From Minisyncoccota bacterium (GTDB lineage Bacteria; Patescibacteriota; Minisyncoccia; Phycocordibacterales; PALSA-1337), in NCBI GenBank assembly GCA_017991475.1, contig JAGOQK010000002.1, positions 23,673 to 87,672 of the forward strand: a stretch of 64,000 nucleotides of DNA, given 5' to 3'. The position numbers were made by a program, and so were the translations under genes. Position 1 is the first letter of the stretch. Every line of letters begins with the position of its first letter. Positions 1 through 33,471 of this stretch are shown here, piece by piece. A model generated the notes under the pieces. It did not search any database, was not told the origin of the DNA, and saw only the letters and a list, made by a program, of their open reading frames with translations.

Positions 1-1
1 G

Positions 2-187: not shown

Positions 188-218
188 TTAATAGTATTCA
201 TCTAATACTAAACTAATT

Positions 219-743: not shown

Positions 744-796
744 GGGGAAGTAAACCTATCATTTATTTGGCAAACCTGTACAGTGTCTAGTTCTTG

Positions 797-869: not shown

Positions 870-905
870 ATGTGACGAATTGTACTAACTCCTTTGTGTT
901 ACCTA

Positions 906-1265
906 CTATTTAATCTCTCGAACTCCTGCGTGAACTTCTCTGTGACAGTTTGCACATATCAGGATGCATTTGTCGACCTCCTCTTTGATCTTTTCCCAGG
1001 ATCTGGTTAGTCCTCGCGCTGACAAACCAAAATTCTTTTTTGTAGGGTCCTTGTGGTGAAAATCGAGCGCATCCTGGCAACGATTGTACCCACAAAACAT
1101 GCATTTGCCACCTTTGTATTCACGAGCCATGGCACGGAGCTTTTTACGTCTCAGTGATACAGCTTTGCGCAAATACTGTGCTCGGGATGCATAAGTTCTT
1201 TTTTCTGACATACAATGAAGTATATCAAAATAATACAATGAGCTCGACAGGTAAGAATGTAGCAT
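906..1265 (-). CDS. HNH endonuclease (small, stand-alone)
   Basis: C-terminal CMFCGY...HHKDP...CILICANCHREVH is the HNH/zinc-finger nuclease motif. The likely true start is the internal Met at 1209-1211 (MSEKRTY...). It sits next to the tRNA-Asn. Confidence 0.75.
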   Translation of the reverse strand: MLHSYLSSSLYYFDILHCMSEKRTYASRAQYLRKAVSLRRKKLRAMAREYKGGKCMFCGYNRCQDALDFHHKDPTKKNFGLSARGLTRSWEKIKEEVDKCILICANCHREVHAGVREIK

Positions 1266-1348
1266 ATTTATGGTAGTAAATCAAAAGTGCTGATATAATG
1301 AACATGTATCGGTAGCCGATCGTATTATCAGAATTAACGAATCATCAT

Positions 1349-1717
1349 ATGAATACCAATATCAAGACTACCAACATTTCATTGACCGACGCTATTGCAG
1401 AGTATGTTCAGAAGCGGATGGAGAAGATAGAGAAACTCGTCGGGGATGATACCTCAGTGCAGTGCGATATCGAGCTTGCACGCACGACCGCTCATCATAA
1501 TAAGGGGGATATTTTCAAGGCCGAGATCCATATCGTCGGCACCGGACTCAATATATACAAATCATCTGAAAAAGAAGATCTCTATGCCGCCGTCGATGAG
1601 ATGCGCGATGGGGTACTCCGTGAATTGAAATCGCACCGTCAGAAAAATATGTCACACATTCGCAAAGGGGGAGCCGCCGTCAAAAATATGATGAAAGGTC
1701 TTTGGCCGTGGAAATAG
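1349..1717 (+). CDS. hpf: ribosome hibernation promoting factor (HPF/RaiA family)
   Basis: MNTNIKTTNISLTDAIAEYVQKRMEKIEKL...AEIHIVGTGLNIYKSSEKEDLYAAVDEM fits the sigma-54 modulation protein / S30EA family. Confidence 0.85.
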   Translation: MNTNIKTTNISLTDAIAEYVQKRMEKIEKLVGDDTSVQCDIELARTTAHHNKGDIFKAEIHIVGTGLNIYKSSEKEDLYAAVDEMRDGVLRELKSHRQKNMSHIRKGGAAVKNMMKGLWPWK

Positions 1718-1748
1718 TTTATTCGATCTAGTATTAATCATAGTGCAA

Positions 1749-1928
1749 TGAATCAATCATCATTTTTCAGCATGAAATCGGCTCGTCAGCCAGTTAGCTC
1801 GACACTTGTCGGTATCTTCCTCGCCTCGTGGTGCCTCTGGACCATCGTTTATTACCTCGATCAGAGTGTCGACAAGGTCAGTGCGGCATATCAGAATCAG
1901 CAACAGACAATACAGAACAATCAGTAAG
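1749..1928 (+). CDS. possible 59-aa membrane peptide
   Basis: ATG-initiated ORF with one predicted TM segment (TLVGIFLASWCLWTIVYYL) in an otherwise empty interval. No homology recognised. Confidence 0.2.
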
Positions 1929-1955
1929 AGCTAGCTACTTGCGGGCAGTGTATGA

Positions 1956-2840
1956 TTATCGTGCTTTGAATCCGTTGGTGAAATCAGTGTAACTCATTTC
2001 ATTTTTTCCTTCAGGGATGACCTTTTCTATTATGAGTTTGCCTCCAGAAAGCGAGGCTGCCGTTACCTTCACGCGTACATCTTTTCCGTCTCGGGAAATC
2101 ATAAAATATGCCTGTGGCCATTCGTGGTACGCCTGTATCTTACGAAAATTTTCATAATCATTAGATGACAAATCAACGAGGCCATCCTCTTTTTTTGTTT
2201 TCCTCGTATAGGTAGCCGCTGAATGATCTTGTTCTGTCTCTGTTATCTTGCCGGTCACCCAGTCAGGAAGAATTTCTGCAAGCAATTTTGCGCCTTCGCG
2301 CGCCATCATTTCCTCGAACGCCTCATAGGTGGGCCACTCATTCATGGATACGTCTTTTTGTGCGACGATAGGACCATGATCCATATCCTCGTCGATCCTC
2401 ATGATAGTGACGCCGGTATTCTTCGTGTCATTCAGGATGGCTGCCTGCAAAGGGGAAGCCCCTCGGTACTGCGGAAGTAGTGAAGGATGAATATTGAGTG
2501 TCTTGTGTGGAGGTATTTCAATAAGCTCCCTTGGTAGAATTTTTCCAAAGGAAGCGACGATGAATGTATCGACGGGATCATTTCTCAACAGCTCGATAAA
2601 AGCAGCGTCTATTTTTGCCGGGTTATATACCTCTATATGTTTCTCCGTCGGCAAAGCACTATTGTGCTGAATAGCCCATTTCTTCACCACATTTGGGGTC
2701 ATAACAAGTTTACGTCCCTGGGGTTTGTCGGGAGTCGTAACAATCGCCTTCGGTATGAATCCGAGTTTTGTGAGCTCTTCTAGGACGATCACCGAGAATC
2801 GCGATGATCCGAAGAAAATGAAGGAGGTCTTGTTGTTCAT
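1956..2840 (-). CDS. fmt: methionyl-tRNA formyltransferase
   Basis: N-terminal formyltransferase fold with the HPSLLPQYRGASPLQAAIL motif. Lies downstream of def in the classic priA-def-fmt order. Confidence 0.9.
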   Translation of the reverse strand: MNNKTSFIFFGSSRFSVIVLEELTKLGFIPKAIVTTPDKPQGRKLVMTPNVVKKWAIQHNSALPTEKHIEVYNPAKIDAAFIELLRNDPVDTFIVASFGKILPRELIEIPPHKTLNIHPSLLPQYRGASPLQAAILNDTKNTGVTIMRIDEDMDHGPIVAQKDVSMNEWPTYEAFEEMMAREGAKLLAEILPDWVTGKITETEQDHSAATYTRKTKKEDGLVDLSSNDYENFRKIQAYHEWPQAYFMISRDGKDVRVKVTAASLSGGKLIIEKVIPEGKNEMSYTDFTNGFKAR

Positions 2841-2884
2841 GCAATTACTTATAAATCTTAATTCGAAATTCTGGATTCTCTCTT

Positions 2885-3439
2885 CTAACTCTTACTCTGC
2901 AATTCTCGGACTTCCTCTTCTGACATCTCCCAAATCTCCTTGGCCTTGTCGATGAAAAGTGTGCCATTGAGATGATCGGTTTCGTGCTGGAATATTTGCG
3001 CCAGCAATCCTGATGCACCTCGTTCGATCTTCTCGCCCTTCTCGTTGTATGCGCGGATGGTAGCTTTCATAGATCGTCTGACCTTGCCATACAGCCAGCG
3101 AACAGAGAGGCATCCCTCCTCCATATCTCGCTTCTCTCGTGAGAGCTTGAGGATGGTTGGATTGATGAACACAAGCGGCCCGCCCGGTCCGGTGTATTCC
3201 TTGTCAGCCTGTCTGAGGAGATCGCCTGACACTACGAAGATGCGGAGGGCCACGCCGATCTGGGGTGCAGCAATGGCGACTCCGTCCTTCTGCTCTGCCA
3301 TAGTGACGACCATGTCTTTGATGATGCTATTGATCTTGTCAGTGCCGATATCAGAAATAGGCACTTCTGTTGCTGTGCCGCGGAGGGTCGGGTGCTCGCG
3401 TTGGAGTATCTCGCGTACCATGGGGAAACTGTAACACAC
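2885..3439 (-). CDS. def: peptide deformylase
   Basis: All three PDF motifs are present: GVAIAAPQIG, EGCLSV, QHETDHLNG. The likely start is Met at 3421 (MVREILQ). Confidence 0.9.
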   Translation of the reverse strand: MCYSFPMVREILQREHPTLRGTATEVPISDIGTDKINSIIKDMVVTMAEQKDGVAIAAPQIGVALRIFVVSGDLLRQADKEYTGPGGPLVFINPTILKLSREKRDMEEGCLSVRWLYGKVRRSMKATIRAYNEKGEKIERGASGLLAQIFQHETDHLNGTLFIDKAKEIWEMSEEEVRELQSKS

Positions 3440-3485
3440 AAATAGGGAATTGGGAAAACACTAATAAAAAAGGTAGTGCAACCTT

Positions 3486-5456
3486 TTACAACAAACTCTC
3501 TGGATCTACCTTCACCTTTACGCTTGGTGGAAGTTGCCTAAGTTTAGAGAGCAGGTCAGTATTAGGCCAACCACCTTGTGGAAGTTTTAGCAACCCATGA
3601 ATGATAGAGTTGCCGCGCACCGTCGCCGTGAATGCAGGGAATATGTCGATCTCACGGGGTTCGAGGAGTCGTTGTACTTCAGCCATTTGTGCCGCGATAG
3701 CATCCTTCTTGCCTTCAATAGTGATCTTGATAAGCGTTGAGTACGGTGGATATGAAAATTGCTTGCGGTCATCGAGTGTGGAGCGGTAGAAATCGCTGAG
3801 ATTGCCCTTGAGACCGTATTCAAAAACCTTTTCTTCAGCCTTGCGTGTCTGTACCAGGAATGATCTTCGGGCGAGACTCCTCAAACGGATGAGGAGATGC
3901 ATGATCTTCTCATGGATCCGGAAGTCAGGAAGCGCAAAAAGGGAATCGAGTGAGGCGATAGCTATGTGGTCGATCTTCTCAGTGAGATAGACGAGTGCCA
4001 TTTCGGTACCGAGAAGAATGCTTCCTGGCCTGGTCTTGAACTTCTCGAGAGTATCGGCGATCTGGGTATCAGTCTTGGCACTATCGGCATCGATTTTGAA
4101 TATATCAATATCGGGAAACCGTTCCTTGATGTCCTCGTATACTTTGTCGATACCTATTCCGAGCGGAGCAAGCCTCCATCCGCCACAGGTTATGCAGACT
4201 TCGACCGCGGTTCTACGTTCACCGCAGCGATGGCACATGAAAAAATTCTTACCTGTTCCACCTGAGGTATGCAGTACCACCGGCCCAGAACAATTCTTGC
4301 ATGATACAACAGTATCGCAATCGCTACAGACCGTGATTGGCGATGAACCTCGACGGATGGCGAGAATAAAGAGATGAGTACTCTCACTCTTGTTGTACTG
4401 AATAAGCTCTTCTAGATCTTTTGATAGTACGCGGAACTTCGGCGTAATCACTTCCTCAGGTATTTGATCTGCATCGTGATAAGTTTTTGGTCCTGTAGAT
4501 GTACCTTGCTTCATGTCGATGAGCGCATCAGTTGCAAGTGATACTGATCTCCATTTGAACGGGGAGCCTTGAGCGATCTCGTGGCCATCAGTACGATGAA
4601 GCGTCTCTGTTCTCAGGAGGCTATCTGCACGGTAGACAGTCTGTCCATTGTCACGAGCGATAGTCTCAAGTGCATGTCGCATGTCTATATACGGAAGCTT
4701 CGCTCCGATCCAGCCACGCCCATTTTCACGCTCAATAATTATGGTATCGATGTCTGCTCGTGGAAGTACTGCAAAGGATCCGGTCGCAACTACTACTATC
4801 GAGTGTTTGGTGTTCGCAATACTCTCCCAGGTCTCAATCAGTTGTTTTTTGGGAAGTTTACTATGCAGAGTGAAGATGTACCCCTCGATACCTTTGGTCA
4901 AGGTAGCAGAAATGTTTTTTGCGTCCTCAATGGTTGGCACATAGATTGCTACAGATCTTTTGCGGGCAAATTCCTGTCTGATGAGGCTGCGCCATGATCC
5001 GGTTCGATCCTCATCGTCTCCCTGAACAGCGTAGGTTTCCTCAGGCGCGGAATGTGAGCTGATCGAGGGTGAGGTCCGATTTCGTCCAGAATCTCGGTTT
5101 CCCGGGGCGGCAATTTTGCTGGCATTCTCAAGGAGGGTATCAGATACGAGTGCATCAATAATTGATCCGATATCAGCTGCATAGTAGTCGGCGAGTTTCT
5201 TGCATGAATGGACAAACGCGGCAGGGAAGAAGTGTGTGGCACGGACTCGTTCGAGCTTCTTGAGGGCATAGGGGGCATTTTTGATTTCGGCTTTGATGTC
5301 GAATGCGGGACGAGTAGTAGTTACAAGTGCCGATACGTTCTTGGAGCGCACTGGTACGGTCACGAGGGCGCCTACTGGTACATCAGAGGCGGTGAAGTAG
5401 GAAAGTTCGTTGACTCCCTTAGTTCGTGCAAGCGGTATGACAGTGATGATATTCAT
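3486..5456 (-). CDS. priA: primosomal protein N' (PriA)-like, with degenerate ATPase motifs
   Basis: N-terminal 3'-DNA-binding-like region. A Cys-rich zinc-binding insert is present (CSDCDTVVSCKNCSGPVVLH...CHRCGERRTAVEVCITCGG). The positions of Walker A (TGSGKT), Walker B (DEEHD) and motif VI (QxxGRxGR) read DEDRTGSW, IIIERENG and RLRSLARR. Confidence 0.65.
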   Translation of the reverse strand: MNIITVIPLARTKGVNELSYFTASDVPVGALVTVPVRSKNVSALVTTTRPAFDIKAEIKNAPYALKKLERVRATHFFPAAFVHSCKKLADYYAADIGSIIDALVSDTLLENASKIAAPGNRDSGRNRTSPSISSHSAPEETYAVQGDDEDRTGSWRSLIRQEFARKRSVAIYVPTIEDAKNISATLTKGIEGYIFTLHSKLPKKQLIETWESIANTKHSIVVVATGSFAVLPRADIDTIIIERENGRGWIGAKLPYIDMRHALETIARDNGQTVYRADSLLRTETLHRTDGHEIAQGSPFKWRSVSLATDALIDMKQGTSTGPKTYHDADQIPEEVITPKFRVLSKDLEELIQYNKSESTHLFILAIRRGSSPITVCSDCDTVVSCKNCSGPVVLHTSGGTGKNFFMCHRCGERRTAVEVCITCGGWRLAPLGIGIDKVYEDIKERFPDIDIFKIDADSAKTDTQIADTLEKFKTRPGSILLGTEMALVYLTEKIDHIAIASLDSLFALPDFRIHEKIMHLLIRLRSLARRSFLVQTRKAEEKVFEYGLKGNLSDFYRSTLDDRKQFSYPPYSTLIKITIEGKKDAIAAQMAEVQRLLEPREIDIFPAFTATVRGNSIIHGLLKLPQGGWPNTDLLSKLRQLPPSVKVKVDPESLL

Positions 5457-8984: not shown

Positions 8985-9674
8985 ATGAATTATAACAACC
9001 TCTCCCACCACGCCTACCTCATCATCGGCAGCGACTCACATCGCCTCGATCTGATCTCCATTCTTGCAAAGGATCACAATATTCTCGCCCAAGCTAACCC
9101 AGACTTTTTTGACCGTTCATATGAAAACCTGACTATCGACGACTCACGAGAATTGAAATCTCTCCACAGTACTCGTCCGATTGGAATTACTGGAAAGAAG
9201 ATTTTCATCATTACAACCAACGCGGCGACTGTTGAAGCACAAAATGCACTTTTGAAACTACTTGAAGAACCTGCGGAGTATGCACATTTCTTTTTGATAG
9301 TTCCATCGGCGCATATTTTACTGCCGACGGTTAAATCACGAATGCAGGAAGTTGTCAGTGGTAAGTTGTCAGTTGTCAGTAAAAAAACTTTAGAACAATT
9401 GAATACTATCGAAGAGGTGCGGAAATTCCTGAAAATGACGCAAGCGAAAAGATTGGAAGTAGTAAAGAAGCTTGTAGAGGATATAACCAAAGAAAAAAAG
9501 ACTAAGCAGGACGTGATCAACTTCCTGGATGCGATCCAGGCTGTTGTCTATGAGGAAAAAGGCATCAAAGAAGGTGCGAAACCTCTTGAAGCTATCGAAA
9601 CTGCTCGAAAATATATCCATGATCGTGCACCGAGCGTGAAGATGCTCATGGAGTATGTGGCGTTGAATATATGA
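8985..9674 (+). CDS. holB: DNA polymerase III delta' subunit (AAA+ clamp-loader)
   Basis: HAYLIIGSD...IFIITTNAATVEAQNALLKLLEEPAEYAHFFLI...LPTVKSRMQEV is typical of delta'. Start placed at Met 8985, downstream of the terminator. Confidence 0.75.
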   Translation: MNYNNLSHHAYLIIGSDSHRLDLISILAKDHNILAQANPDFFDRSYENLTIDDSRELKSLHSTRPIGITGKKIFIITTNAATVEAQNALLKLLEEPAEYAHFFLIVPSAHILLPTVKSRMQEVVSGKLSVVSKKTLEQLNTIEEVRKFLKMTQAKRLEVVKKLVEDITKEKKTKQDVINFLDAIQAVVYEEKGIKEGAKPLEAIETARKYIHDRAPSVKMLMEYVALNI

Positions 9675-15079: not shown

Positions 15080-15893
15080 CCGTCCCTACCAGCGTTTTTC
15101 GCGATTGATCGCGATCTTCTTTGCAGCACTTGTGCTTCTGTGTATCGCTCTCATCATGCTTGCCCCTCATTTCTTTTCCTCTGTCTTTACAAGCATTGCA
15201 CGACCATTCTGGAGGATTCAATTTTCGGTAGAGTCGGGCTCGCTCTCATCACCCGAGCGCCTTCTCGCTGAGAACGAACGACTCAAGTTAGAGATCGAGA
15301 AATTGCGAGTTTCTTCAGAGGGATCAGTATTTTTGATTTCAGAGAATGAAGAGTTCAGAACACTTCTGGGACGGACGGTGTCACCCGCCTCCGCTTCATC
15401 CTCGATACGGCTTGATGCGGGTGTCGCATCGGGCATACTGGAGGAGGGTGCCATCCTCGCGGCCGTCCTCAAGCGCCCTCCTGCGTCTCCGTACGATGTT
15501 CTAATCATAGATGTCGGCTATGCCGACGGCGTCTCTACGACTAGTGCGGTATATGCTCCAGGTAATATTCTCATCGGACGTGTGATCGACGTGCTCAAGG
15601 ATACGTCCAAAGTGAAACTGTATTCCTCACCCGAGGAAAAATACGATGTGCTCATTGGGGCGAACAGGACACCTGCTGTCGCGGTTGGACGAGGTGGCGG
15701 TCATTATGAAGCTCAGATTTCGCGTGAGTCAGGCGTCAAGGAAGGGGACTATGTCATGAGTAACGGATTGAATGATGGTCCGTTTGGTTTGGTGAATTCT
15801 ATTATTTCAGATCCAGCACAAGCATTCCAGACGGTACTCTTCTCTCCGATGACAAATATCTACGAGATTCGTTGGGTGCTCGTGAAGAATTAG
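14994..15893 (+). CDS. mreC: rod-shape protein MreC
   Basis: N-terminal TM segment, a coiled coil (LLAENERLKLEIEKLR) and a beta-rich C-terminal domain. The likely start is Met at 15057 (MIYLQP). Confidence 0.7.
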   Translation: MGQVLSSRISTRTERCYFIAKMIYLQPHSRPYQRFSRLIAIFFAALVLLCIALIMLAPHFFSSVFTSIARPFWRIQFSVESGSLSSPERLLAENERLKLEIEKLRVSSEGSVFLISENEEFRTLLGRTVSPASASSSIRLDAGVASGILEEGAILAAVLKRPPASPYDVLIIDVGYADGVSTTSAVYAPGNILIGRVIDVLKDTSKVKLYSSPEEKYDVLIGANRTPAVAVGRGGGHYEAQISRESGVKEGDYVMSNGLNDGPFGLVNSIISDPAQAFQTVLFSPMTNIYEIRWVLVKN

Positions 15894-16159
15894 TCCACAA
15901 TCCCATGACCATCCGTTTGATACTCGATATTCTCATGTTCCTCACAGTCATCCAGGGGTGGTGGTTTTTTGCTTTACCTATCGCATTGGTCGGCATGCTT
16001 AGGTACTCGAATTATTATGAAGTACTTATAGCCGGTCTCGCGTACGACAGTCTTTTTGGACTGACACCACACGAAGGAATCTCGAGTTATATCGGTTCAA
16101 TTTCAGCTGGTCTTTTATTTGGCGCTATGGTGGTGCTCAAGAAGATCATGAGAAAATAG
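15872..16159 (+). CDS. mreD: MreD-like small polytopic membrane protein
   Basis: Position between mreC and mrdA. Three hydrophobic helices. The likely start is Met at 15905. Confidence 0.4.
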   Translation: MGAREELVHNPMTIRLILDILMFLTVIQGWWFFALPIALVGMLRYSNYYEVLIAGLAYDSLFGLTPHEGISSYIGSISAGLLFGAMVVLKKIMRK

Positions 16160-16186
16160 GTCGTTGTATGTGATATCATTCACGAT

Positions 16187-17950
16187 ATGCGCATATCCTG
16201 GAGAGCTCTAGTGCCCGTATTTCGTCGCCGCAGAAGGCGAGTGACTGAGATTGCGCCTGAGGAGGTGCTCATTGATTCGAGGAATATTCCTGATTTTGAT
16301 ACTACGCAATTCGAGGGCCGCATCGAGCGACCGATATCGCGCGCAATGCTCTATGCTGTTGCGGGTTCCTTCTCTCTGCTCGCACTCGTCTTTATCGGTC
16401 AGGCATGGCATCTACAGATCGCAAAGGGCGAGGAGTACGCAGAAAGAAGCGAGCGCAACATGTTGCGTCCCGTACCCGTATTCGCAGCGCGTGGTGTCAT
16501 CATGGACAGGAATGGGTCATTGTTGGCATGGAATGCACCCAAAGGATCAATCGATACTATCAATTCGCTGGCTTCTACGTCGCTCGGGTCAAGTATCGTA
16601 GGGGATGATGTGGTCGCCCTTAGAGAATACTCCACAACAACAGGACTCGCTCATGTGCTCGGGTATGTACAGTACCCGTCGAAGGACAAGAATGGATTTT
16701 ATTATCAGAATGACTTCGAAGGTATTTCGGGAGTTGAGAAGTATTTCAATAAGGAACTTCAGGGTGAGAACGGTTCTCGACTCGTCGAAGTTGATGCGCA
16801 TGGAGAAATCGTGTCTGAGAACATTGTAAGACCAGCAGAGCCGGGAGTATCCCTCAAGCTGTCGATCGATAGTCGAGTGCAGTCAGCACTCTACAAGAAT
16901 ATAAAAGGTATTGCCGAGCAGGTAGGCTTTGCGGGAGGGGCCGGTATCATCATGGATGTACAGTCGGGAGAGCTTATTGCGATTACAAGCTACCCTGAGT
17001 ATAGTTCTCAAGTCATGTCGGATAGGACTGACAGTGTGGCTGTCCGTGCATTGCTCAACAATCCAAACTTACCCTTTCTGAATAGGGCTGTCGACGGCCT
17101 CTACACACCCGGATCCATCGTCAAGCCGTATGTCGCGCTTGCGGCGCTTACCGAGAATATCATTGACCCAACTACCAATATTGTCACAACAGGTTCTATA
17201 TCCATCCCAAACCCCTACGATTCTACCAAAGCTACTGTTTTTCGCGATTGGAAAAATCATGGGACGATAGATATGCGCCGCGCGCTTGCCGTTTCTTCGG
17301 ATGTGTATTTCTATACGATTGGTGGAGGATACAAAGATCAAAAGGGTCTCGGTATACTGACTATCGATAAGTATCTCAAATTATTTGGTCTTGGCTCTGC
17401 GATTCCGGAATCATTTGCAAGTGGTAAGGTCGGCACTATTCCGACTCCTGAATGGAAAAAAGCCACATTTGATGAGGATTGGTACATAGGAAATACCTAT
17501 CATACCTCCATAGGTCAGTATGGATTCCAAGTCACCCTTATACAGATGGCGCGAGGCATCGCCGCGGTCGCAAATGGAGGAAAACTTCTTGTCCCTACTA
17601 TCATCAAAGACCAGGAGCCTGTCGTTGAGTTTGTCATCGATTCGATCACTCCTCGCAGCTATCAAATCGTCCAGGAAGGCATGCGGGCAGGTACTATCGA
17701 TGGGACTGGTAAGGCTCTCGACGTACCATATACTCACCTAGCAACAAAAACAGGTACCGCCGAGCTCGGTGTATCGAAGGATAAAGTGAACTCCTGGGTG
17801 ACGGGATTTTGGCCCTACGAAAACCCGAAGTATGTTTTTGTGGTGATGTTGGAGAAGGGATCAGTGCACAACCTGATAGGTGCAGCTGCAGCTATGAGGC
17901 AACAGCTCGATTGGATGAATGTAAATACACCTGAATACTTCAAGGAGTAA
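16187..17950 (+). CDS. mrdA: penicillin-binding protein 2 (peptidoglycan D,D-transpeptidase)
   Basis: N-terminal TM segment plus dimerisation domain. Transpeptidase domain with SIVKPY (SxxK). Sits in the mreBCD context. Confidence 0.85.
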   Translation: MRISWRALVPVFRRRRRRVTEIAPEEVLIDSRNIPDFDTTQFEGRIERPISRAMLYAVAGSFSLLALVFIGQAWHLQIAKGEEYAERSERNMLRPVPVFAARGVIMDRNGSLLAWNAPKGSIDTINSLASTSLGSSIVGDDVVALREYSTTTGLAHVLGYVQYPSKDKNGFYYQNDFEGISGVEKYFNKELQGENGSRLVEVDAHGEIVSENIVRPAEPGVSLKLSIDSRVQSALYKNIKGIAEQVGFAGGAGIIMDVQSGELIAITSYPEYSSQVMSDRTDSVAVRALLNNPNLPFLNRAVDGLYTPGSIVKPYVALAALTENIIDPTTNIVTTGSISIPNPYDSTKATVFRDWKNHGTIDMRRALAVSSDVYFYTIGGGYKDQKGLGILTIDKYLKLFGLGSAIPESFASGKVGTIPTPEWKKATFDEDWYIGNTYHTSIGQYGFQVTLIQMARGIAAVANGGKLLVPTIIKDQEPVVEFVIDSITPRSYQIVQEGMRAGTIDGTGKALDVPYTHLATKTGTAELGVSKDKVNSWVTGFWPYENPKYVFVVMLEKGSVHNLIGAAAAMRQQLDWMNVNTPEYFKE

Positions 17951-17959
17951 TTAAAATCA

Positions 17960-18069
17960 CCAGAAGGGCGAGACAAGTGTTTTGTCGCGTGTCATGTTGT
18001 ATTTGTACACGAATCTCTAGTAAACCGTTCTGCATGACACGCGACAAAACACTTGTCTCGCCCTTCTGG
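17960..18069 (-). repeat. palindromic intergenic element, copy A (core in reverse orientation)
   Basis: Perfectly complementary 37-bp arms at 17960-17996 and 18033-18069. They flank the 36-nt core at 17997-18032, whose reverse complement is CAGAACGGT-ttactagagattc-GTGTACAAATACAA. Confidence 0.85.
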
Positions 18070-18142
18070 GGTATGCCGTGCTTCCTTGAAATGATGGGGT
18101 GTATAGTGGTATGATATATTGACTTACCACTTAACTATATAA

Positions 18143-18625
18143 GTGCCTTTTACTATCATGTCCACCGAAACTCAATATCTTACGAACGAAAAGTTCGCGG
18201 AGCTTACGAAAGAACTGGAAAATCTCAAGTCTATTCGTCGCAAGGAAGTTGCTGAACAGCTCGAATACGCAAAGAGGCTCGGTGATCTCTCTGAGAATGC
18301 TGAGTATCATCAGGCCCGCGAGGAGCAGGCTCTCGTCGAGGATCGTATCAGTCGTCTTGAGAATCTCCTCAAGAATGCTGTCATATCAGCAAAAGGAGGC
18401 AGCGATGTTGTGATTGTGGGGTCTACAGTGCGATTGACGAAGGAAGGTGACAACAAATCATACCTCTATACTCTGGTAGGGTCAGAGGAGGCGGATATGT
18501 CACAAGGCAAGGTTTCTAACATGTCACCACTCGGGTCCGCACTCCTCGGACACAAGGAGGGAGACAAAATTCAGGTTACGACCCCAAAGGGAGTTATCAA
18601 GTATCAGGTCGCTGCTGTAAAGTAA
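18143..18625 (+). CDS. greA: transcription elongation factor GreA
   Basis: N-terminal coiled coil with LGDLSENAEYHQAREEQ. C-terminal FKBP-like domain. Confidence 0.88.
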   Translation: MPFTIMSTETQYLTNEKFAELTKELENLKSIRRKEVAEQLEYAKRLGDLSENAEYHQAREEQALVEDRISRLENLLKNAVISAKGGSDVVIVGSTVRLTKEGDNKSYLYTLVGSEEADMSQGKVSNMSPLGSALLGHKEGDKIQVTTPKGVIKYQVAAVK

Positions 18626-18634: not shown

Positions 18635-20095
18635 ATGTCCTCACTCGAAGAACTTCGCTCAATACGACTCGGTAAACTCGACCTACTTAAGAAAGCGGGC
18701 ATGAACCCGTATCCAGTCTCTGTACCACGCGACTTCTGTCTCAAGGATGCGCGCGCGAATTTTTCAGAGTATGAAAAGTCTCAGAAAGAGGTTTCTCTGA
18801 GCGGCCGCATCATGGCTATTCGTGGACAAGGCGCCATTCTTTTCGTTGTACTCGATGATGGTAAGTCGACACTCCAGTCGGTCTTCAAGAAGGACACCCT
18901 CAAACCAGAATTATTCGAACTTTTTGCAAATGCGATAGATATTGGTGACATCATCAGTGTCACAGGAACTTTCTTCACCACCAACAGGGGAGAGCAGAGC
19001 ATTCTCGTCACTTCGTGGACTATCGCTTCCAAGTCACTCCTTCCTCTTCCAGAGAAGTGGCACGGTATCACCGATCCTGATGAGCGTTTCCGCAAGAGAT
19101 ATCTCGACTTACTCATGACTCCCGAACTCCGAGTGATGTTTGAGAAGAAATCTCAATTTTGGGATGTAACTCGTAGATTTATGAAGGAACACGGATTTCT
19201 CGAGGTTGAAACTCCAACTTTGGAAACGACGACCGGTGGTGCAGAAGCTACTCCATTTGCAACACATCACAATGATTTTGATTTACCTGTATACCTTCGT
19301 ATTTCAGTGGGTGAGCTTTGGCAGAAGAGACTTATGGCTGCCGGTTTTCAGAAAACATTTGAAATTGGTCGAACATATCGTAACGAAGGTACAAGTCCTG
19401 AGCATGCCCAAGAATTTACCAATATGGAGTTTTATTGGGCGTATGCAAACTATGAGGATGGCATGAAGCTATCTCAGGAACTGTATCGAACACTAGCCAA
19501 GGAGGTCTTCGGAACTACAAAATTTACTACAAGGGGTCACACATTTGATCTGGCGGACGAATGGGTACAAATTGACTACACTGACGAAATCAAGAAACAG
19601 ACTGGTCTAGATATTTCTACTGCATCTGAAAAGGATATGATGAATAAACTTGATGCACTAAACATGAAATATGAGGGAACAAATCGTGAGCGTTTAACAG
19701 ATACTCTCTGGAAGTATTGCCGTAAGAATATTTCCGGACCAGCATTCCTCATCAATCACCCAGTATTGGTTGCTCCGCTAGCAAAGATGGTTCCTGGTAA
19801 AAGTAGTGTAGTTCAAATGTTTCAACCGATCATTGCGGGTAGCGAGGTGGGCAGAGGGTATTCAGAGCTCAATGACCCCATTGATCAGAAGCAACGTTTT
19901 GAAGGGCAGCAAAAATTGATTGAAACTGGTGATACTGAGGCAATGATGTCTGATATGGAATTTGTCGAGATGCTCGAACATGGTATGCCGCCGACATGTG
20001 GTTTCGGGTTTGGCGAAAGACTTTTCAGTTTTATGGTGGATAAACCACTTCGTGAGACGCAGATGTTCCCGCTCATGAGGCCGAAAAGCAAGTAA
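18635..20095 (+). CDS. lysS: lysyl-tRNA synthetase (class II)
   Basis: OB-fold N-terminus. Class II motifs (…FEIGRTYRNEG… / …GSEVGRGYSELNDP… / …GFGFGERL…). Confidence 0.9.
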   Translation: MSSLEELRSIRLGKLDLLKKAGMNPYPVSVPRDFCLKDARANFSEYEKSQKEVSLSGRIMAIRGQGAILFVVLDDGKSTLQSVFKKDTLKPELFELFANAIDIGDIISVTGTFFTTNRGEQSILVTSWTIASKSLLPLPEKWHGITDPDERFRKRYLDLLMTPELRVMFEKKSQFWDVTRRFMKEHGFLEVETPTLETTTGGAEATPFATHHNDFDLPVYLRISVGELWQKRLMAAGFQKTFEIGRTYRNEGTSPEHAQEFTNMEFYWAYANYEDGMKLSQELYRTLAKEVFGTTKFTTRGHTFDLADEWVQIDYTDEIKKQTGLDISTASEKDMMNKLDALNMKYEGTNRERLTDTLWKYCRKNISGPAFLINHPVLVAPLAKMVPGKSSVVQMFQPIIAGSEVGRGYSELNDPIDQKQRFEGQQKLIETGDTEAMMSDMEFVEMLEHGMPPTCGFGFGERLFSFMVDKPLRETQMFPLMRPKSK

Positions 20096-20189
20096 AAAGG
20101 TAAAATTCAAAAGGCAAAATTAAGCGCATTGTCACTTTTGACTTTTGAATTGAACTTTTGATTTTTTAATTTTAACTTTTAAATTTTCC

Positions 20190-20414
20190 ATGAACTTCTT
20201 CACAAAAATGCTCGTCAAGAAACAGCTCAAGGGTAAGATCCCTGAGGGAGAGATGGATAAGATGATAGATATGATCGAGAAGAACCCAGATTTCTTCAAG
20301 CAGATGGCTGCATCTATCCAGGAGAAGATGAAGTCTGGTATGTCACAGGAAGAGGCGGCGATGGCTGTTATGCAGCAAGATGGGGATCAGCTCAAGAAAA
20401 TGATGGGCCAGTAG
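20190..20414 (+). CDS. small hypothetical protein (Lys/Met/Glu-rich)
   Basis: ORF preceded by an AT-rich tract. No homology recognised. Confidence 0.35.
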   Translation: MNFFTKMLVKKQLKGKIPEGEMDKMIDMIEKNPDFFKQMAASIQEKMKSGMSQEEAAMAVMQQDGDQLKKMMGQ

Positions 20415-22332: not shown

Positions 22333-25300
22333 ATGATTTTACCCATGAAGAAACCTCAATCGAAAGCGAAGCTGCTCGGCGCATATGACCACAAGAAGGT
22401 AGAAGCAAAGTGGCAGAAGCAGTGGGACAAAACCAAAGCATTCAAAGCTACCGAAGATCCCAAGAAGAAGAAATTCTTTGGCTTGATTGAGTTCCCATAC
22501 CCATCAGGAGATGGTCTCCATGTCGGACATATCCGCTCCAACACAGCCATGGATATCATTGCTCGCAAGAGGCGCCGTGAGGGATACGAGGTGTTGTACC
22601 CAATAGGTTGGGATGCATTCGGTCTGCCAACTGAGAACTACGCTATCAAGACTGGCATCCAGCCTGCCATCGTTACCAAAAAGAACACCGACACATTCCG
22701 TCGCCAGCTCAAGGCACTCGGATTCTCTTTTGATTGGTCACGCGAAATCAACACAACTGATCCGAAGTATTACCGCTGGACACAGTGGATCTTTTTACAG
22801 TTCCTGAAAAAGGGATTGGCATACAAGAAGAAGATGACGATCAACTGGTGTCCCAAGGATCTCATCGGTCTTGCGAACGAAGAGGTGGTCAATGGATGCT
22901 GTGAGCGTTGTGGAACTCCTGTCGAGAAGCGCGACAAGGAGCAGTGGATGCTGGCGATAACAAAGTATGCTGATCGCCTCGACAAGGATCTTGATACGGT
23001 TGATTTTCTCGACAGGATAAAGACACAGCAGAGAAATTGGATAGGGAAGAGTGAAGGAGCGGAGATTAAATTCGAAGTTCGAATATCGAGATCCGAAGCA
23101 AATTCAAAATTAGAAGTACAAATACCTAAAAGGGAGATTACCGTCTTCACGACTCGCCCAGATACCCTCTTTGGTGTGACCTACGTGGTGCTTGCTCCTG
23201 AACATAAGCTCGTGGGTGAATTAATATCCACGATAGAAAATGCTGCAGAAGTTCGTGACTATATTTCAAAGTCCAAGCAGGAGACAGATATCCAAAGAAC
23301 CGACGCCTCAAAAGAAAAGTCAGGCGTGCAACTCAAGGGCATCATGGCCGTCAATCCTGTGAATGGCGAGGAAATCCCAGTCTGGATCTCCGACTATGTG
23401 CTCGCAGACTATGGTACAGGAGCTGTTATGGCTGTTCCTGCACATGATGATCGCGATTTTGAGTTTGCCCAGAAGTACAATCTACCGATCAAGACTGTCA
23501 TCGAGCCTCTCATTGTCAAAGAAGACGGCACTGATGCAGTCAGGAAAGATGCACCCTATGTCGAGCGCAATGCAGCAGTGTGTATCATCAAGCATTGGTC
23601 GGAGGACAAGTATCTCATGTCATTCTACAAAGCCAACGGCTGGAAAGGCTTTGTCGTGGGCGGAATTGAGAATGGTGAGAGCGTCGCAGTTACCGGCACT
23701 CGTGAGATTCATGAGGAGACGGGATACAAAAATGCAAAGTTCGTTCGTGAGGTCGGTACTATTCACTCAAAGTTCTTCCACGCAGTAAAATCTGTGAACA
23801 GGTTCGCTCACTTCAAGGTCGCATATTTCGAACTCTCCGATGGAGATCGTGACGAAATGGCTGAAGAGGAAAAGAAGCTTCATGATGTGGTCTGGCTTTC
23901 TCCCCAAGAAGTCACCACAGCAGTCAATCGCGAAGATATCAAGATCGCTTGGGACTTCTTCAATGGAAAAATTTCATATACAGGAAATGGTCTGCTCACA
24001 AATTCCAACTCATTTGATGGTAAGGATTCAGAATCAGTCAAAAAGGAAATCACCGAGAAGGCGGGTGGCAAGTGGGTTACCACATTCAAGCTCCGTGACT
24101 GGGTGTTCTCTCGCCAGCGTTATTGGGGAGAGCCGATACCAGTCGTACATTGTGATGTATGCGGTGTAGTTCCTGTCCCTGAAAAAGATCTTCCCGTCAA
24201 ACTCCCGAAGGTCAAGAATTATAAGCCGACAGAGACCGGCGAGTCACCACTTGCTGCTATTGAGAAGTGGGTGAATACCACTTGTCCCAATTGTGTCGCG
24301 AATAAGAAGAAACCAAAGTACCTCATCTTCGATTTTGATGGAGTGCTCGGAAACACGTGGACTGAATCAAATGAGGTCAAGGTTGTTATGGGTGATTCGG
24401 CGACTGTAGAGGATGCAGCGGCAGTCACGATGAAACATTTTGATAAGAAGCCATCTACAGAACGCAACCATTCGCTAACGACTGAGCAGTTGCAGAAGAA
24501 GCAAGAATGGATTACTACATTCGGAAAACATCTTTCCGAAACGGATTTTGGTTTGTTCAAAGGCTTTATTGCTGAACTGAAGAAGATCAAGAATGCAAAG
24601 TTTGCAGTCGTCTCATCAGGTTCATCACAGTATGTACTTCCTGCACTCAAAAAATCGGGGATTAAGTTCACACACATTCTTGCCTACGAAGATCACTACT
24701 CGAAGGAGGAAAAGGTAGAAAAAGTCTGTAAGGACTGGGGTATCTCACCGAAGGATGCATATTATTTTACCGATACTAAGGCGGACATTCTTGAGCTTCA
24801 GGATTTGATGGGTCGCGAGCGCATGATTGGATGTGCCTGGGGATGGCATGGATATGAAAAACTAAACGAGCTTCTTCCTGAAAAAATGATCCTTAGGGAA
24901 TTCAAAGACGTTCGCAAAGTCCTCAATCTTGACTGTCTTGCAAAGCGCGAAACAGATACGATGCCAAACTGGGCAGGTTCGAGCTGGTACTATCTCCGCT
25001 ACACAGATCCCAAAAATTCGAAAGAGTTCGCATCAATAGACAATCTCAAGTACTGGACTCCTGTCGACTGGTACAACGGCGGCATGGAGCATACAACTTT
25101 GCACTTGCTCTACTCTCGCTTCTGGCACAAATTCTTGTTCGACCTCGGACTCGTTCCGACCAGTGAGCCGTATCAGAAGAGGACATCTCACGGCCTCATC
25201 CTTGCCGCAGGTGGCGAGAAGATGTCCAAGTCAAAGGGTAATGTCGTGAACCCTGACAGCATCATCGAGACTGTCGGTGCAGATAGTTTGCGCCTGTATG

Positions 25301-25890
25301 AGATGTTCATGGGTCCATTTGATCAGCCGATTGCATGGAATACAGATAATATTGCGGGAGTGCGACGCTTTATTGAGAGAGTGTGGAAGCTCCGTGAGAA
25401 AATTCAGATAGGCACGGCCTCATCTAGGGATGCACAGAAAACCATCCACAAAACGATCAAGAAAGTAACTGAGGATATCGAAGCCATGCGTTTCAATACT
25501 GCAATCAGTTCACTTATGATCGCGCTCAATGAGCTTGAAAAGGTGGAATCGGTGACGGTTGAAAATTTTGAAGCTCTGCTCCAGCTCCTCGCTCCGTTTG
25601 CTCCACACGTCACTGAGGAGCTCTGGGCGTCACTTGGGTACAAGGATTCTATTCATGCATCACCATGGCCCGTATATGACCCTGCACAGGCAGTCGATAG
25701 TGAGGTGACTATCATGATCCAAATCAATGGCAAGACTCGTGGTTCATTTACCGCACCTATCGATACCTCGAAAGAGGAGCTTGAAAAACTCGCCAAGGAT
25801 TCACCGGAAGGAAAAAAGTGGTTGGAAGGTAAGTCCATCTCTAAAGTTATTGTAGTACCGAACAAGTTGGTGAACATTGTAGTCTTATAG
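22333..25890 (+). CDS. leuS: leucyl-tRNA synthetase with two inserted extra domains (Nudix and HAD)
   Basis: HIGH (PYPSGDGLHVGH), the editing region, KMSKS and the C-terminal anticodon-binding region are all present in one 1185-aa frame. An extra Nudix box lies at about 23570-23960 (GGIENGESVAVTGTREIHEETGY). An extra HAD motif-I segment lies at about 24300-24940 (LIFDFDGVLG), between CPNC and AKRETDTM. Confidence 0.9.
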   Translation: MILPMKKPQSKAKLLGAYDHKKVEAKWQKQWDKTKAFKATEDPKKKKFFGLIEFPYPSGDGLHVGHIRSNTAMDIIARKRRREGYEVLYPIGWDAFGLPTENYAIKTGIQPAIVTKKNTDTFRRQLKALGFSFDWSREINTTDPKYYRWTQWIFLQFLKKGLAYKKKMTINWCPKDLIGLANEEVVNGCCERCGTPVEKRDKEQWMLAITKYADRLDKDLDTVDFLDRIKTQQRNWIGKSEGAEIKFEVRISRSEANSKLEVQIPKREITVFTTRPDTLFGVTYVVLAPEHKLVGELISTIENAAEVRDYISKSKQETDIQRTDASKEKSGVQLKGIMAVNPVNGEEIPVWISDYVLADYGTGAVMAVPAHDDRDFEFAQKYNLPIKTVIEPLIVKEDGTDAVRKDAPYVERNAAVCIIKHWSEDKYLMSFYKANGWKGFVVGGIENGESVAVTGTREIHEETGYKNAKFVREVGTIHSKFFHAVKSVNRFAHFKVAYFELSDGDRDEMAEEEKKLHDVVWLSPQEVTTAVNREDIKIAWDFFNGKISYTGNGLLTNSNSFDGKDSESVKKEITEKAGGKWVTTFKLRDWVFSRQRYWGEPIPVVHCDVCGVVPVPEKDLPVKLPKVKNYKPTETGESPLAAIEKWVNTTCPNCVANKKKPKYLIFDFDGVLGNTWTESNEVKVVMGDSATVEDAAAVTMKHFDKKPSTERNHSLTTEQLQKKQEWITTFGKHLSETDFGLFKGFIAELKKIKNAKFAVVSSGSSQYVLPALKKSGIKFTHILAYEDHYSKEEKVEKVCKDWGISPKDAYYFTDTKADILELQDLMGRERMIGCAWGWHGYEKLNELLPEKMILREFKDVRKVLNLDCLAKRETDTMPNWAGSSWYYLRYTDPKNSKEFASIDNLKYWTPVDWYNGGMEHTTLHLLYSRFWHKFLFDLGLVPTSEPYQKRTSHGLILAAGGEKMSKSKGNVVNPDSIIETVGADSLRLYEMFMGPFDQPIAWNTDNIAGVRRFIERVWKLREKIQIGTASSRDAQKTIHKTIKKVTEDIEAMRFNTAISSLMIALNELEKVESVTVENFEALLQLLAPFAPHVTEELWASLGYKDSIHASPWPVYDPAQAVDSEVTIMIQINGKTRGSFTAPIDTSKEELEKLAKDSPEGKKWLEGKSISKVIVVPNKLVNIVVL

Positions 25891-26007
25891 AAACCGAGCG
25901 TGACGACATGTGTGCTCTCACGCTACATCGCAGAACGGTTCGCGAAAGTGTAGTGTACAAATACAACGATGTAGCGTGAGAGCACACATGTCGTCACGCT
26001 CGGTTTC
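25890..26007 (+). repeat. palindromic intergenic element, copy B
   Basis: Perfect 41-bp inverted arms at 25890-25930 and 25967-26007. Core at 25931-25966 is CAGAACGGT-tcgcgaaagtgta-GTGTACAAATACAA. The left arm begins on the last base of the leuS stop codon. Confidence 0.85.
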
Positions 26008-26089
26008 GCTCTATTTGACCAGATTTCCAAGATATGGTAGTATGATTCTATCAAGCCTGGGCATAGGGGATTAGCATATCCCCACAAGA

Positions 26090-27181
26090 TTGACTTTATT
26101 ACAACCAAGTGCTACAAATAGTAGCAATTACTTATCAGCGAATTACATGGCAACTACAACCATTTCGTTCAAGCCCAAGCAAATCGTCAAGAGACTCCTC
26201 GCCTCACTTCCTGACCGTGCCCGTGATGTTATTCTCTATCGTTACGGACTCGGTGCAGACACACGCCGCATGACCCTCGATGGTATCGGCAAGAAGTACA
26301 GCATTACTCGTGAGCGCGTACGCCAAATCGAGAACTACGCTCTCGGAATGATCCGCAAATCAGATGAGTACAAGCTTGAAAAAGCCGTATTCTCTGAAAT
26401 CGAAAACCTCCTTCATGCATTTGGTGGTGTCGTCGTCGAAGATGATTTCCTCGGACATCTCACCAAAGACAAGAGTCTCCAGAACCATATCCATTTCCTC
26501 CTTGTGATCGGCGAACCGTTCACCAAGAAGAAGGAAGACGACGAATTCAGTCATCGCTGGCACGTCAACGAGGCTCTCGCCAACCAGGTCGAGGATGCTC
26601 TTCGCAAGCTCTATGCCAATCTCAACAATCAAGATCTCCTTCCTGAATCAGAGATCATCAACAAGTTCCTCAATCATCTTGAAGGCGTCTCTGAGCGCTA
26701 CAAGAACCAGGAGATTATGAAGCGCTGGCTTGCCCTCTCAAAGTCGATCGGCAAGAATGCCCTCGGCGACTGGGGTACCGCCAAGTCATCAAACATCAAG
26801 ACCAAGGGTATGCGTGATTATGCGTTCCTCGTTATCAGGAAACATGGTTCACCGATACACTTCCGTGATGTTGCAAAACAGATCACCTCTATGTTCAACA
26901 AGAAAGCCCATGTCGCAACGACGCACAATGAGCTCATCAAGGATCCTCGTTTCGTTCTCGTTGGCCGCGGTCTCTATGCTCTCGCTGAGTGGGGATACGC
27001 TCCCGGTATCGTCCGCGATGTCATCCGTCACGTGATCGAGAAGAATGGCCCAATGACCAAGGATGAGATCGTCACCAAAGTCATGAAGGAACGCTATGTG
27101 AAGGAAAACACTATCGCCGTCAATCTTCAGAATCCAAAGTATTTCAAGAAGGACAAGGAAGGTAAATATTCCGCAGCGTAA
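26090..27181 (+). CDS. sigma-70 region-4-like HTH fused to a C-terminal HARE-HTH-like domain
   Basis: Region 4-like segment: ...LPDRARDVILYRYGL...TLDGIGKKYSITRERVRQIENYAL. C-terminal winged-helix resembles the HARE-HTH of RNAP delta/restriction enzymes: DYAFLVIRKHGSPIHFRDVAKQI...KDPRFVLVGRGLYALAEWGY. The likely start is Met at 26147. Confidence 0.55.
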   Translation: MTLLQPSATNSSNYLSANYMATTTISFKPKQIVKRLLASLPDRARDVILYRYGLGADTRRMTLDGIGKKYSITRERVRQIENYALGMIRKSDEYKLEKAVFSEIENLLHAFGGVVVEDDFLGHLTKDKSLQNHIHFLLVIGEPFTKKKEDDEFSHRWHVNEALANQVEDALRKLYANLNNQDLLPESEIINKFLNHLEGVSERYKNQEIMKRWLALSKSIGKNALGDWGTAKSSNIKTKGMRDYAFLVIRKHGSPIHFRDVAKQITSMFNKKAHVATTHNELIKDPRFVLVGRGLYALAEWGYAPGIVRDVIRHVIEKNGPMTKDEIVTKVMKERYVKENTIAVNLQNPKYFKKDKEGKYSAA

Positions 27182-31405: not shown

Positions 31406-32179
31406 GTGCGTGACCGTCTTTCTGCTACAATATCCGCCATGCATCACCAGACTCGCACGGCCGTACTCCTCATTATCCTATTGGCAGTAATGAGTGGTCT
31501 CTATGTATTCAACAGGATCAGTGAGCCGTATAGTGTCAACCCAGAGACAGCAGAAGTATATCCATTCAATGGCACCGTCCCTCCTGAGATATCACTCGGC
31601 ACCACCACACAGAAGAATATTATTTTCACTTTCGATGCAGGGTCTGGTACCGCATCAGTAGTCCCTGTCTTGAATGCGCTCAAAAAGCATGGCATCAAAT
31701 CTACATTTTTCATGACAGGTCAGTGGGTACTTCGCAATCCTGAGCTTGCACGAATGATTGTTGCGGATGGCCACGAAGTATTCAATCATTCATTCAACCA
31801 CCCACACCTCACCGAGCTCAGTGACGAACTGATCGCTGCACAGCTCCGCACTGCGGATGAAGCAATTTCTGACATTATCGGTAGTAGCACCAAACCGTAT
31901 TTCCGCCCGCCGTATGGAGATCGAGATGCCCGAGTACTTGCGGCCGCTGCCAAAGCGGGATATCAGTCGGTATATTGGACGGCAGACGCAGGTGACTGGA
32001 TGGAGAGCGAGGGTATGACTTCAGACGAGGTGAAGTACCGTATTTTCTCCAATCTTCGGCCAGGCGCAATCATACTGATGCACCTCGGTGACTCCATCAC
32101 TGGCACCATACTCGACGAAGTGATCACTGAAGTAGAGAGGCTTGGATATGAGACTGTTTCATTGACGCAAGGTCTGTAG
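31406..32179 (+). CDS. polysaccharide deacetylase (NodB homology domain), membrane-anchored
   Basis: TFDAGSGT..., HEVFNHSFNHP and the LMHLGD motif. Confidence 0.8.
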   Translation: MRDRLSATISAMHHQTRTAVLLIILLAVMSGLYVFNRISEPYSVNPETAEVYPFNGTVPPEISLGTTTQKNIIFTFDAGSGTASVVPVLNALKKHGIKSTFFMTGQWVLRNPELARMIVADGHEVFNHSFNHPHLTELSDELIAAQLRTADEAISDIIGSSTKPYFRPPYGDRDARVLAAAAKAGYQSVYWTADAGDWMESEGMTSDEVKYRIFSNLRPGAIILMHLGDSITGTILDEVITEVERLGYETVSLTQGL

Positions 32180-32187
32180 TCAAGAAA

Positions 32188-32297
32188 GCGCGGTGTGCGC
32201 ACATGTATTTTTACTCATGTTATGCAGAACGGTACACTGTAGAATCGTGTACAAATACAACATAACATGAGTAAAAACACATGTGCGCACCTCGCGC
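32188..32297 (+). repeat. palindromic intergenic element, copy C
   Basis: Arms at 32188-32224 and 32261-32297 are complementary apart from one internal A/C position and the two outermost positions. Core at 32225-32260 is CAGAACGGT-acactgtagaatc-GTGTACAAATACAA. Confidence 0.8.
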
Positions 32298-32317
32298 TTC
32301 CCTGATATACTATCGCC

Positions 32318-33166: not shown

Positions 33167-33222
33167 GTTTATCGAGTTTGATCTATCCCTCAGTGTATAC
33201 CTTCCCCACCATGCAGTATTGC

Positions 33223-33296
33223 AAACGCAAATCACTTGCGTTTAGATGACGAAGCCTAGCCATATTATTTCACTCAAACGCAAGTGATTTGCGTTT
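33223..33296. promoter_or_regulatory. two copies of a perfect palindromic operator-like site AAACGCAA-N5-TTGCGTTT
   Basis: Sites at 33223-33243 and 33276-33296 are exact reverse complements of each other, including the 5-nt spacer. A half-site GAACGCAAAA lies at 33353-33362. All are in the 300-nt interval upstream of the UDG gene. Confidence 0.45.
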
Positions 33297-33471
33297 GCTG
33301 TACCACCCCTATTGAGACATAGTTCCACCATTTCCCCCTTTTTGAATCTTGTGAACGCAAAATTTATAAAAGGGGGTAGTAAGGGTGGTGGGTGTTATAG
33401 AGTTTAAAATCTGGCAAGAAAAATGAGAATATCACTTTTCCTTACCTAAATCCCTTTGTTATCATGTCACT

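Follow-up and report, generated by a model that had tools for sequence, protein, structure and literature searches.

In the window, by which we mean the whole 64-kb stretch of DNA analyzed here from a Candidatus Paceibacterota MAG, the spacer between an mrdA-like gene and greA is occupied by a long palindrome. The two arms of this element, termed copy A, are complementary at all 37 of their 37 positions and are separated by 36 nt. The arm sequence has no second occurrence in the window, and no match was obtained in 100 shuffles. On folding, either strand forms one long hairpin, with a z-score of -13 to -15. An inverted-repeat scan of the whole window revealed the same arm spacing of 36 nt in two further hairpins, copies B and C. 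All three copies are intergenic, and they are spaced singly, 6-8 kb apart, within the 64 kb. The coordinates are collected in Table 1.

Table 1. Positions of the three elements and of their neighboring features in the window. Core strands are given relative to the plus-strand reading of copy A.
Feature	Positions	Strand	Basis or remark
Copy A left arm, 37 nt	17960-17996		Pairs 37/37 with right arm; confirmed to 17989 in independent assembly L022
Copy A type-I core, 36 nt, plus-strand reading TTGTATTTGTACAC-N13-ACCGTTCTG	17997-18032	+	Minus-strand pattern match; 31/36 versus flipped L005 core
Copy A right arm, 37 nt	18033-18069		Complementarity to left arm
Outer inverted repeat, left half, coding end of mrdA	17925-17946		77% complementarity with 18083-18104 over 22 nt
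Outer inverted repeat, right half, overlaps -35 region of greA promoter	18083-18104		Complementarity to 17925-17946
greA sigma70-type promoter, TTGAAA-18-TATGAT with TG, just outside element	18086-18115	+	Conserved in L003, L005 and L008
mrdA-like PBP2 transpeptidase gene, upstream neighbor of A	16187-17950	+	Pfam PBP_dimer and Transpeptidase
greA, downstream neighbor of A	18158-18625	+	Pfam GreA_GreB_N and GreA_GreB
Copy B, 41/41 arms 25890-25930 and 25967-26007, type-I core 25931-25966	25890-26007	-	Core orientation opposite to A
Copy B neighbors: leuS (LeuRS) / sigma70_r4-HARE-HTH gene	around 25890-26007	both +	
Copy C, 45-nt arms 89% complementary, type-I core 32225-32260	32180-32305	-	Core orientation same as B; identical in assembly L038
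Copy C neighbors: polysaccharide deacetylase gene / ATP-cone/Mrr_cat gene	around 32180-32305	both +	

The cores of the three copies have the sequence CAGAACGGT-N13-GTGTACAAATACAA in common, lying on the minus strand in copy A and on the plus strand in copies B and C. When core A is flipped it matches core B at 29 of 36 positions and core C at 31 of 36, compared with 18 of 37 and 21 of 41 when it is left unflipped. The core orientation therefore differs among the copies, all of which lie between co-directional genes on the plus strand. A preliminary description of this DNA had given the arms of copy A as fully complementary, core A as the reverse complement of cores B and C, and the flanking genes as co-directional at all three copies. 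The arm pairing and the gene directions are just as it stated, and the pairing is absent from the 100 shuffles. The relationship between the cores holds for the conserved ends (9 + 14 nt), but not for the middle 13 nt, which are variable. Copy A is a member of a previously undescribed family of hairpin-forming repeats of ~110-126 bp in the tiny genomes of Paceibacteria (CPR).

The window contains other inverted repeats. That at 33216-33303 has 28-nt arms with 93% complementarity and a 32-nt loop, each arm being a small palindrome in itself (AAACGCAAnTCACTTGCGTTT). It lies in the 305-nt spacer leading from the ATP-cone/Mrr_cat gene to a UDG gene, and its center is unrelated to the type-I family; the equivalent spacer is 27 nt long in the relative L039, and 280 nt long with no similarity in L042. 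A further inverted repeat at 59968-60048, adjoining unannotated small ORFs, has 20-nt arms with 90% complementarity and a 41-nt loop, and is rich in GTAAACAG repeats. AT-rich imperfect inverted repeats are found directly past genes, lysS included, at 47354-47455 and 20095-20190 in the window and at 13876-13977 in the relative L003, the last with a 36-nt spacing. These may be a separate class of AT-rich hairpin, or ordinary terminator regions. Both neighbors of copy B have features of their own. The leucyl-tRNA synthetase (22333-25890) comprises 1185 aa with inserted NUDIX and HAD hydrolase domains, while its homolog in L043 has 956 aa, with a NUDIX match and no HAD match. The leader of the sigma70_r4/HARE-HTH gene (26015-26090, and also in L043 at 9110-9246 and in L003) is well conserved from promoter to start codon and contains a GGGGATTAGCATATCCCC hairpin. 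It has no match in Rfam, and from its sequence it may be a regulatory 5' UTR.

The structure of the family was analyzed using six intact copies, three from the window and three from two relatives. Within the stems 97.3% of cells are Watson-Crick paired, and 37 of the 44 stem pairs have changed on both sides with none varying on one side only. None of 500 shuffles reached this level of covariation, and controls in which the alignment was slid gave no more than 17 pairs. The arms themselves have a pairwise identity of 47%, with 136 transitions and 193 transversions between them, so that the compensation is rich in transversions, and it includes mirrored indels. Arms of 37-42 bp have neither a mismatch nor a G-U pair in five of the six copies, and there are almost no G-U pairs in ~200 bp of stem. 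With divergence that is near-saturated and rich in transversions, passage through G-U intermediates would not be possible. The core behaves differently. Its ends (14 + 9 nt) are 97% identical, and the middle 13 nt are 61.5% identical, falling into two subtypes. Thus the arms are constrained almost solely by pairing, and the core by sequence.

Each element has the same layout, in which a distal arm is followed by a semi-conserved mid-arm motif CACATGTGTTTT, a proximal arm of 13-14 nt and a conserved core of 33-36 nt, and then by the mirror image. The outer ends differ among copies (CCAG.., GAAAC.., TCAAG.., CCCCG.. and TCCAC..), with no shared terminal tetranucleotide. We considered whether the arms could be REP-like mini-hairpins, but their folding is inconsistent; four of seven single arms fold modestly (z of -1.6 to -3.4), and three do not (z ~0). 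A small helix predicted within the loop exhibits no covariation and was likewise discarded. Three of the four transition-type mismatches in copy C become G-U pairs on the strand carrying UUGUAUUUGUACAC, which hints weakly at a preferred strand in the one informative copy.

Relatives were found through their PBP2, deacetylase and sigma-like proteins, and their contigs were compared with the window site by site. At locus A, between mrdA and greA, an element is present in relatives having 91, 83 and 82% identity in PBP2, and probably in one having 74%. In the relative with 83% identity, L005, the arms pair at 39 of 39 positions. They are 72% identical to those of the window, and each change is mirrored in the opposite arm. 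The core matches that of the window at 31 of 36 positions when flipped, and at 19 of 39 unflipped. The relative with 91% identity, L003, has 40-nt arms that are 95% complementary around a loop of just 14 nt. In L008, with 75% identity, there is no element, and the 66-nt spacer is a short palindrome made of the mrdA end and the greA -35 region. The outer repeat that surrounds copy A in the window also flanks the L005 element (23 nt, 91%), and in L008, where the site is empty, the two halves of this repeat join into one contiguous palindrome. The comparison of mrdA-greA spacers that had been proposed in the preliminary description therefore yields an element with a flipped core, an element with a short loop and an empty site, and the orientation independence that it had proposed is borne out at the orthologous site. 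We asked if the 14-nt loop of L003 could be a remnant of a type-I core, but 13% of shuffles likewise form a full ordered subsequence, so the resemblance is not significant.

At locus B the relative L003 has an element with a center unrelated to type I, and the sites of L043 and L044 are empty. At locus C the element is missing from L039, L041 and L042, whose spacers measure 42-52 nt, while L043 is filled, its 138-nt spacer being equal in length to that of the window. Compared segment by segment, the L043 and window spacers are 75-80% identical over the outer 32 and 44 nt but only ~16% identical over the central 62 nt, which comprise the proximal arms and core. The distal arms are therefore orthologous, whereas the center has been exchanged. 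The new center is not unique to that site. A second core, type II (CAGTTTCTnGAATAGGT...TTCACTT), is common to the locus C center of L043 and the locus B center of L003, which are identical to each other at 27 of 34 positions. The leuS|sigma element of L003 is consequently not a case of mere core loss. Nor is type II a rearranged type I, as the two are ~50% identical in either orientation. When filled sites were compared with empty ones at loci A, B and C, no target-site duplications were found, and at loci B and C the empty site is not palindromic. Among close relatives, therefore, whole elements are gained and lost, the center flips, and the central cassette delimited by the mid-arm motif can be swapped.

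The same genome pairs are unevenly diverged. The sigma-like protein (26090-27181) is 97-98% identical, and the deacetylase (31406-32179), 5 kb away, is 63-65% identical. In L043 a phage-integrase fragment and a large serine recombinase of 538 aa lie directly upstream of ychF (1-4814), where the window has a block of mreB-mrdA-greA-lysS, suggesting an integrated element or a rearrangement.

Searches were made for further copies. When one genome per species was scanned for the exact pattern, two more came to light, in a single Parcubacteria MAG (JBDLTF01), each with perfect 42-nt arms of new sequence. A first exact-pattern scan of metagenomes found no copies. A second gave 12 matches and a relaxed scan of viral sequences gave 13, all of them lacking arms and attributable to chance or coding sequence. 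The type-II core was not found among viral contigs. A covariance model, R1, built from the six copies detected nothing beyond the known copies, either in the window or in ~250 kb of DNA from the relatives. In Rfam at gathering thresholds nothing matched at the elements, a tRNA being the sole match in the window; at permissive thresholds the region around copy A matched just generic miRNA-precursor hairpin models, far below threshold. The phage and plasmid collections contained no match to the element, and no description of such a repeat was found in the published literature. Among the genes of the 64-kb window there is no transposase, recombinase, HUH nuclease, RAYT or Nop-domain/Tas gene, nor any other candidate partner gene for the element.

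The palindromes systematically fragment assemblies at the mrdA housekeeping locus. A Logan contig (k=31) from run SRR11088367, of the same organism, is 100% identical to the window over 15137-17989 and ends 30 nt into the left arm of copy A. The contigs of several relatives likewise end within arm-like sequence just past the mrdA stop. Because palindromes break short-k assemblies intact copies are rare in contig collections, and the census is biased accordingly. Our sample is small, with six copies of type I, two of type II and one that has a short loop. The orientation of a core can be resolved only by k-mers or reads longer than the arm, which is 37 nt in copy A. In five short-read assemblies the contig ends 27-52 nt past the mrdA stop in arm-like sequence (L006 8224-8250, L007 1996-2027, L022 2815-2853, L023 10269-10320 and L024 3664-3694).

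This raises the question of whether the inversion of core A could be an artefact, an assembly error at this spacer having been named in the preliminary description as a possible source of the observation. With perfect arms of 37 nt a de Bruijn graph with k ≤37 could cross the loop either way, and the k=31 contigs of the host and its relatives do break inside the arms. We nevertheless give this explanation almost no credence. The 119.6-kb source contig crosses three such elements, implying a larger k or spanning reads. A second contig from SRR11088367 is 100% identical over 4.7 kb that include the whole of copy C, so that the orientation of that core is reproduced independently. An independent JGI assembly of a relative has the opposite orientation at the same site as copy A, and both states are thus natural. 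At copy A itself the left arm is independently matched as far as 17989, whereas the orientation of its core is that of a single assembly.

We have examined whether the elements act as RNA or as DNA. There are no promoter-like sites inside elements A, B and C, the core included; the sigma70-type promoters of the downstream genes lie just outside A (Table 1) and B (26015-26043). On the sense strand none of these three hairpins is followed by a run of T, although the window has canonical terminators at other sites. Of the nine elements, seven start 0-10 nt past a stop codon and end just before the promoter or start of the next gene. The copy in L001 lies between divergent genes, and that in L002 between convergent genes. 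An intrinsic (Rho-independent) terminator can be discounted, given the lack of a U-tract after the hairpin and the copy between divergent genes. The orientation of the core bears no relation to gene direction within what is a single replichore-like block of plus-strand genes. Taken together, the near-absence of G-U pairs, the transversions and mirrored indels, the equal conservation of the core in both orientations and the lack of a fixed polarity with respect to the neighbors point to a process that would act on DNA and treat both strands alike.

The placement of most elements immediately past a stop codon would fit an RNA-level 3'-UTR element, co-transcribed with the upstream gene. Its hairpin of 37-45 bp could stop or insulate transcription, block 3' exonucleases or be a target for RNase III, with the core as a loop bound by a protein or a pairing partner. 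As RNA, either strand folds into an extremely stable structure, and template switching can maintain perfect RNA hairpins (PMC8794818). There is also precedent among mobile palindromic repeats. Correia/NEMIS and ERIC repeats act as RNA-level 3'-UTR hairpins. We think this explanation unlikely here, however. The U-tract is missing in a genome that has canonical terminators, and no upstream transcript would arrive at the L001 copy between divergent genes. With neighbors that are all on the plus strand, the loop in A would be the complement of that in B and C, yet the core is equally well conserved both ways, and there are virtually no G-U pairs across ~200 bp of stem. The combination of a conserved loop with a variable yet paired stem is also the classic signature of a structured RNA, and might be taken to indicate a stand-alone small RNA gene with its own promoter, in which the loop is the seed and the orientation relative to the neighbors is irrelevant. 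Copy C does fold better on the strand carrying UUGUAUUU, at -84 compared to -71 kcal/mol. Nonetheless, no promoter-like site occupies a consistent position with respect to the core, either within the elements or beside them, and the flanking sequences show no conservation from copy to copy. Because the arms have the same sequence on either strand, a promoter located in them would be bidirectional. There is neither a terminator nor an Rfam match, the in-loop helix does not covary, and the same arms are shared by two unrelated types of core. We regard a small RNA gene as very improbable. The preference for a DNA-level or bidirectionally functional element over a simple strand-specific sRNA that had been voiced earlier is thus partly supported. 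Its leaning toward DNA is reasonable, but there is no need for bidirectional function.

Our best reading, which we hold with about even confidence, is that this is a lineage-restricted, dispersed and modular palindromic repeat resembling REPINs and BIMEs that acts at the level of DNA, where the core is a putative recognition site, and where template switching would homogenize the arms and invert the center. The long arms would allow the locus to extrude a hairpin or cruciform, or to fold on the lagging-strand template. Extrusion would display the core as a single-stranded loop, and its two conserved ends could then be recognized in a sequence-specific manner, probably by a protein. Arm complementarity might be kept by template switching during replication, or by hairpin-templated correction, with the arms carrying almost no sequence information. 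The same process, or recombination between the arms, would invert the center, making the orientation of the core a neutral coin-flip. Template switching between the arms of inverted repeats homogenizes the arms and inverts the spacer, preferentially where the arms are long (PMC8604942), and it can create and maintain perfect hairpins (PMC8794818). Since long perfect inverted repeats invert their spacers in this way (PMC8604942), the core orientation is most simply a neutral by-product, rather than a mark of bidirectional function.

Some of the observations could also be accommodated by an enzyme-driven modular system. The mid-arm motifs would be putative sites of recombination or nicking, and a dedicated recombinase or hairpin-specific nuclease would flip the 62-nt cassette and swap it among loci, much as happens in invertons and shufflons or in parvoviral flip/flop. 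The cassette could instead be a tiny mobile unit that targets hairpin tips. The exchange at locus C is exactly equal in length (62 nt), with its boundaries at the conserved motif CACATGTnTTTT / AAAAnACATGTG, there are two unrelated types of core that are each conserved, and a flip is seen at an orthologous site. Moreover, the element at locus A lies in the middle of a palindrome older than itself, which is unbroken where the site is empty. Against this, the window contains no recombinase, HUH nuclease or transposase, the empty sites of loci B and C are not palindromes, and a single exchange and a single flip have been observed, both of which are explained by template switching without an enzyme. 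In addition, at 62-72 bp the segment is very short for a conventional invertase to bring its sites into synapsis. We consider such a system improbable. Taken further, CPR might possess an undescribed DNA system built on hairpins, of which the family would be the cis-component. A dedicated structure-specific recombinase or HUH-type nuclease would recognize the loop and mid-arm motif, regenerate perfect arms and flip and exchange the 62-nt cassette, the type-I and type-II cores acting as interchangeable 'addresses'. This extension we find equally improbable.

It is unexpected to find non-coding repeats of 110-126 bp at orthologous sites in the genomes of CPR/Patescibacteria, which are tiny and tightly packed, and no repeated elements of this sort have been catalogued in CPR so far. 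The family presents an unusually clean natural case of arm homogenization and spacer inversion on a selected element. If the core is a site of protein recognition on extruded DNA, this would point to a factor that binds hairpins in an uncultured phylum. In practical terms, short-k assemblies break at conserved housekeeping loci, and the orientation of the center cannot be trusted unless reads span it.

The elements can be compared with a number of known systems. TIGR-Tas arrays (PMC12045711) also have variable yet palindromic stems and loops of ~36 nt, and occur in Parcubacteria among others. TIGR units are however in tandem beside a Nop-domain Tas gene, with two variable loop spacers of 8-12 nt between tiny box C/D motifs, whereas here there are single copies among housekeeping genes, with invariant loop ends. 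We rejected this assignment, as the copies lie singly 6-8 kb apart, the loop ends are 97% identical and there is no Nop domain among the proteins of the window. An integron attC site was rejected also, since conservation is central rather than terminal, both orientations occur and the neighbors are housekeeping genes. Invertons and shufflons, and parvoviral termini, resemble the elements in having a segment bounded by inverted repeats that exists in two orientations, and both orientations are seen here on comparing copy A with L005 at the orthologous site. Invertons are usually >100 bp, with a promoter and a nearby invertase, and parvoviral flip-flop arises from hairpin-primed replication of linear genomes. 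There is no invertase in the 64-kb window, and no promoter in the core. Short inverted repeats subject to template switching (quasipalindrome correction; PMC8604942, PMC8794818, PMC7202029) undergo arm homogenization and spacer inversion, both of which are found here; those are generic mutational events that can strike any such repeat, the spacers in the yeast cases being 2-5 nt, whereas here we have a repeated family with a selected 36-nt center.

MITE-like repeats such as Correia/NEMIS, ERIC and the Rickettsia RPE (PMC3184786, PMC2229807) are similarly non-coding and 100-150 bp in length, with inverted ends that form hairpins. They are found in either orientation, often in 3' UTRs, and in reduced genomes too. 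In MITEs the terminal inverted repeats are conserved and match those of a parent IS, and the target site is duplicated; in the present elements conservation is lowest at the outer ends, and there is no direct duplication of the target. REPINs are REP doublets that form hairpins and are mobilized by RAYT transposases (PMC3116915, PMC3337134). They too are ~100-bp hairpins with two inverted arms around a spacer, dispersed between genes in tens of copies, inherited vertically over long periods and variably present among relatives. The elements described here are similarly extragenic and dispersed, with three in 64 kb, and persist vertically, that at locus A being kept in relatives. The arms of REPINs (REPs of ~25 nt) are conserved, tagged with GTAG/CGTC and each form a small hairpin, and their spacer is variable, whereas here the arms are near-saturated (47% identical) and untagged, and it is the center that is conserved. 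The pattern of conservation is thus the reverse of that in REPINs and MITEs.

The closest architecture is that of BIME-1/RIP (RIB) of the enterobacteria, in which two inverted REPs surround a conserved L motif of ~34 bp that binds IHF. The two have in common palindromic arms on either side of a conserved center of ~34-36 bp, located between genes. On direct reading of the sequence the IHF-like consensus WATCAANNNNTTR is absent from the core. The arms of BIME-1/RIP are conserved REPs, and the phylum is unrelated, while the arms of the present element are near-saturated. In BIME-1/RIP the center is bound by protein, and in the Paceibacteria element an equivalent role for the core is putative.
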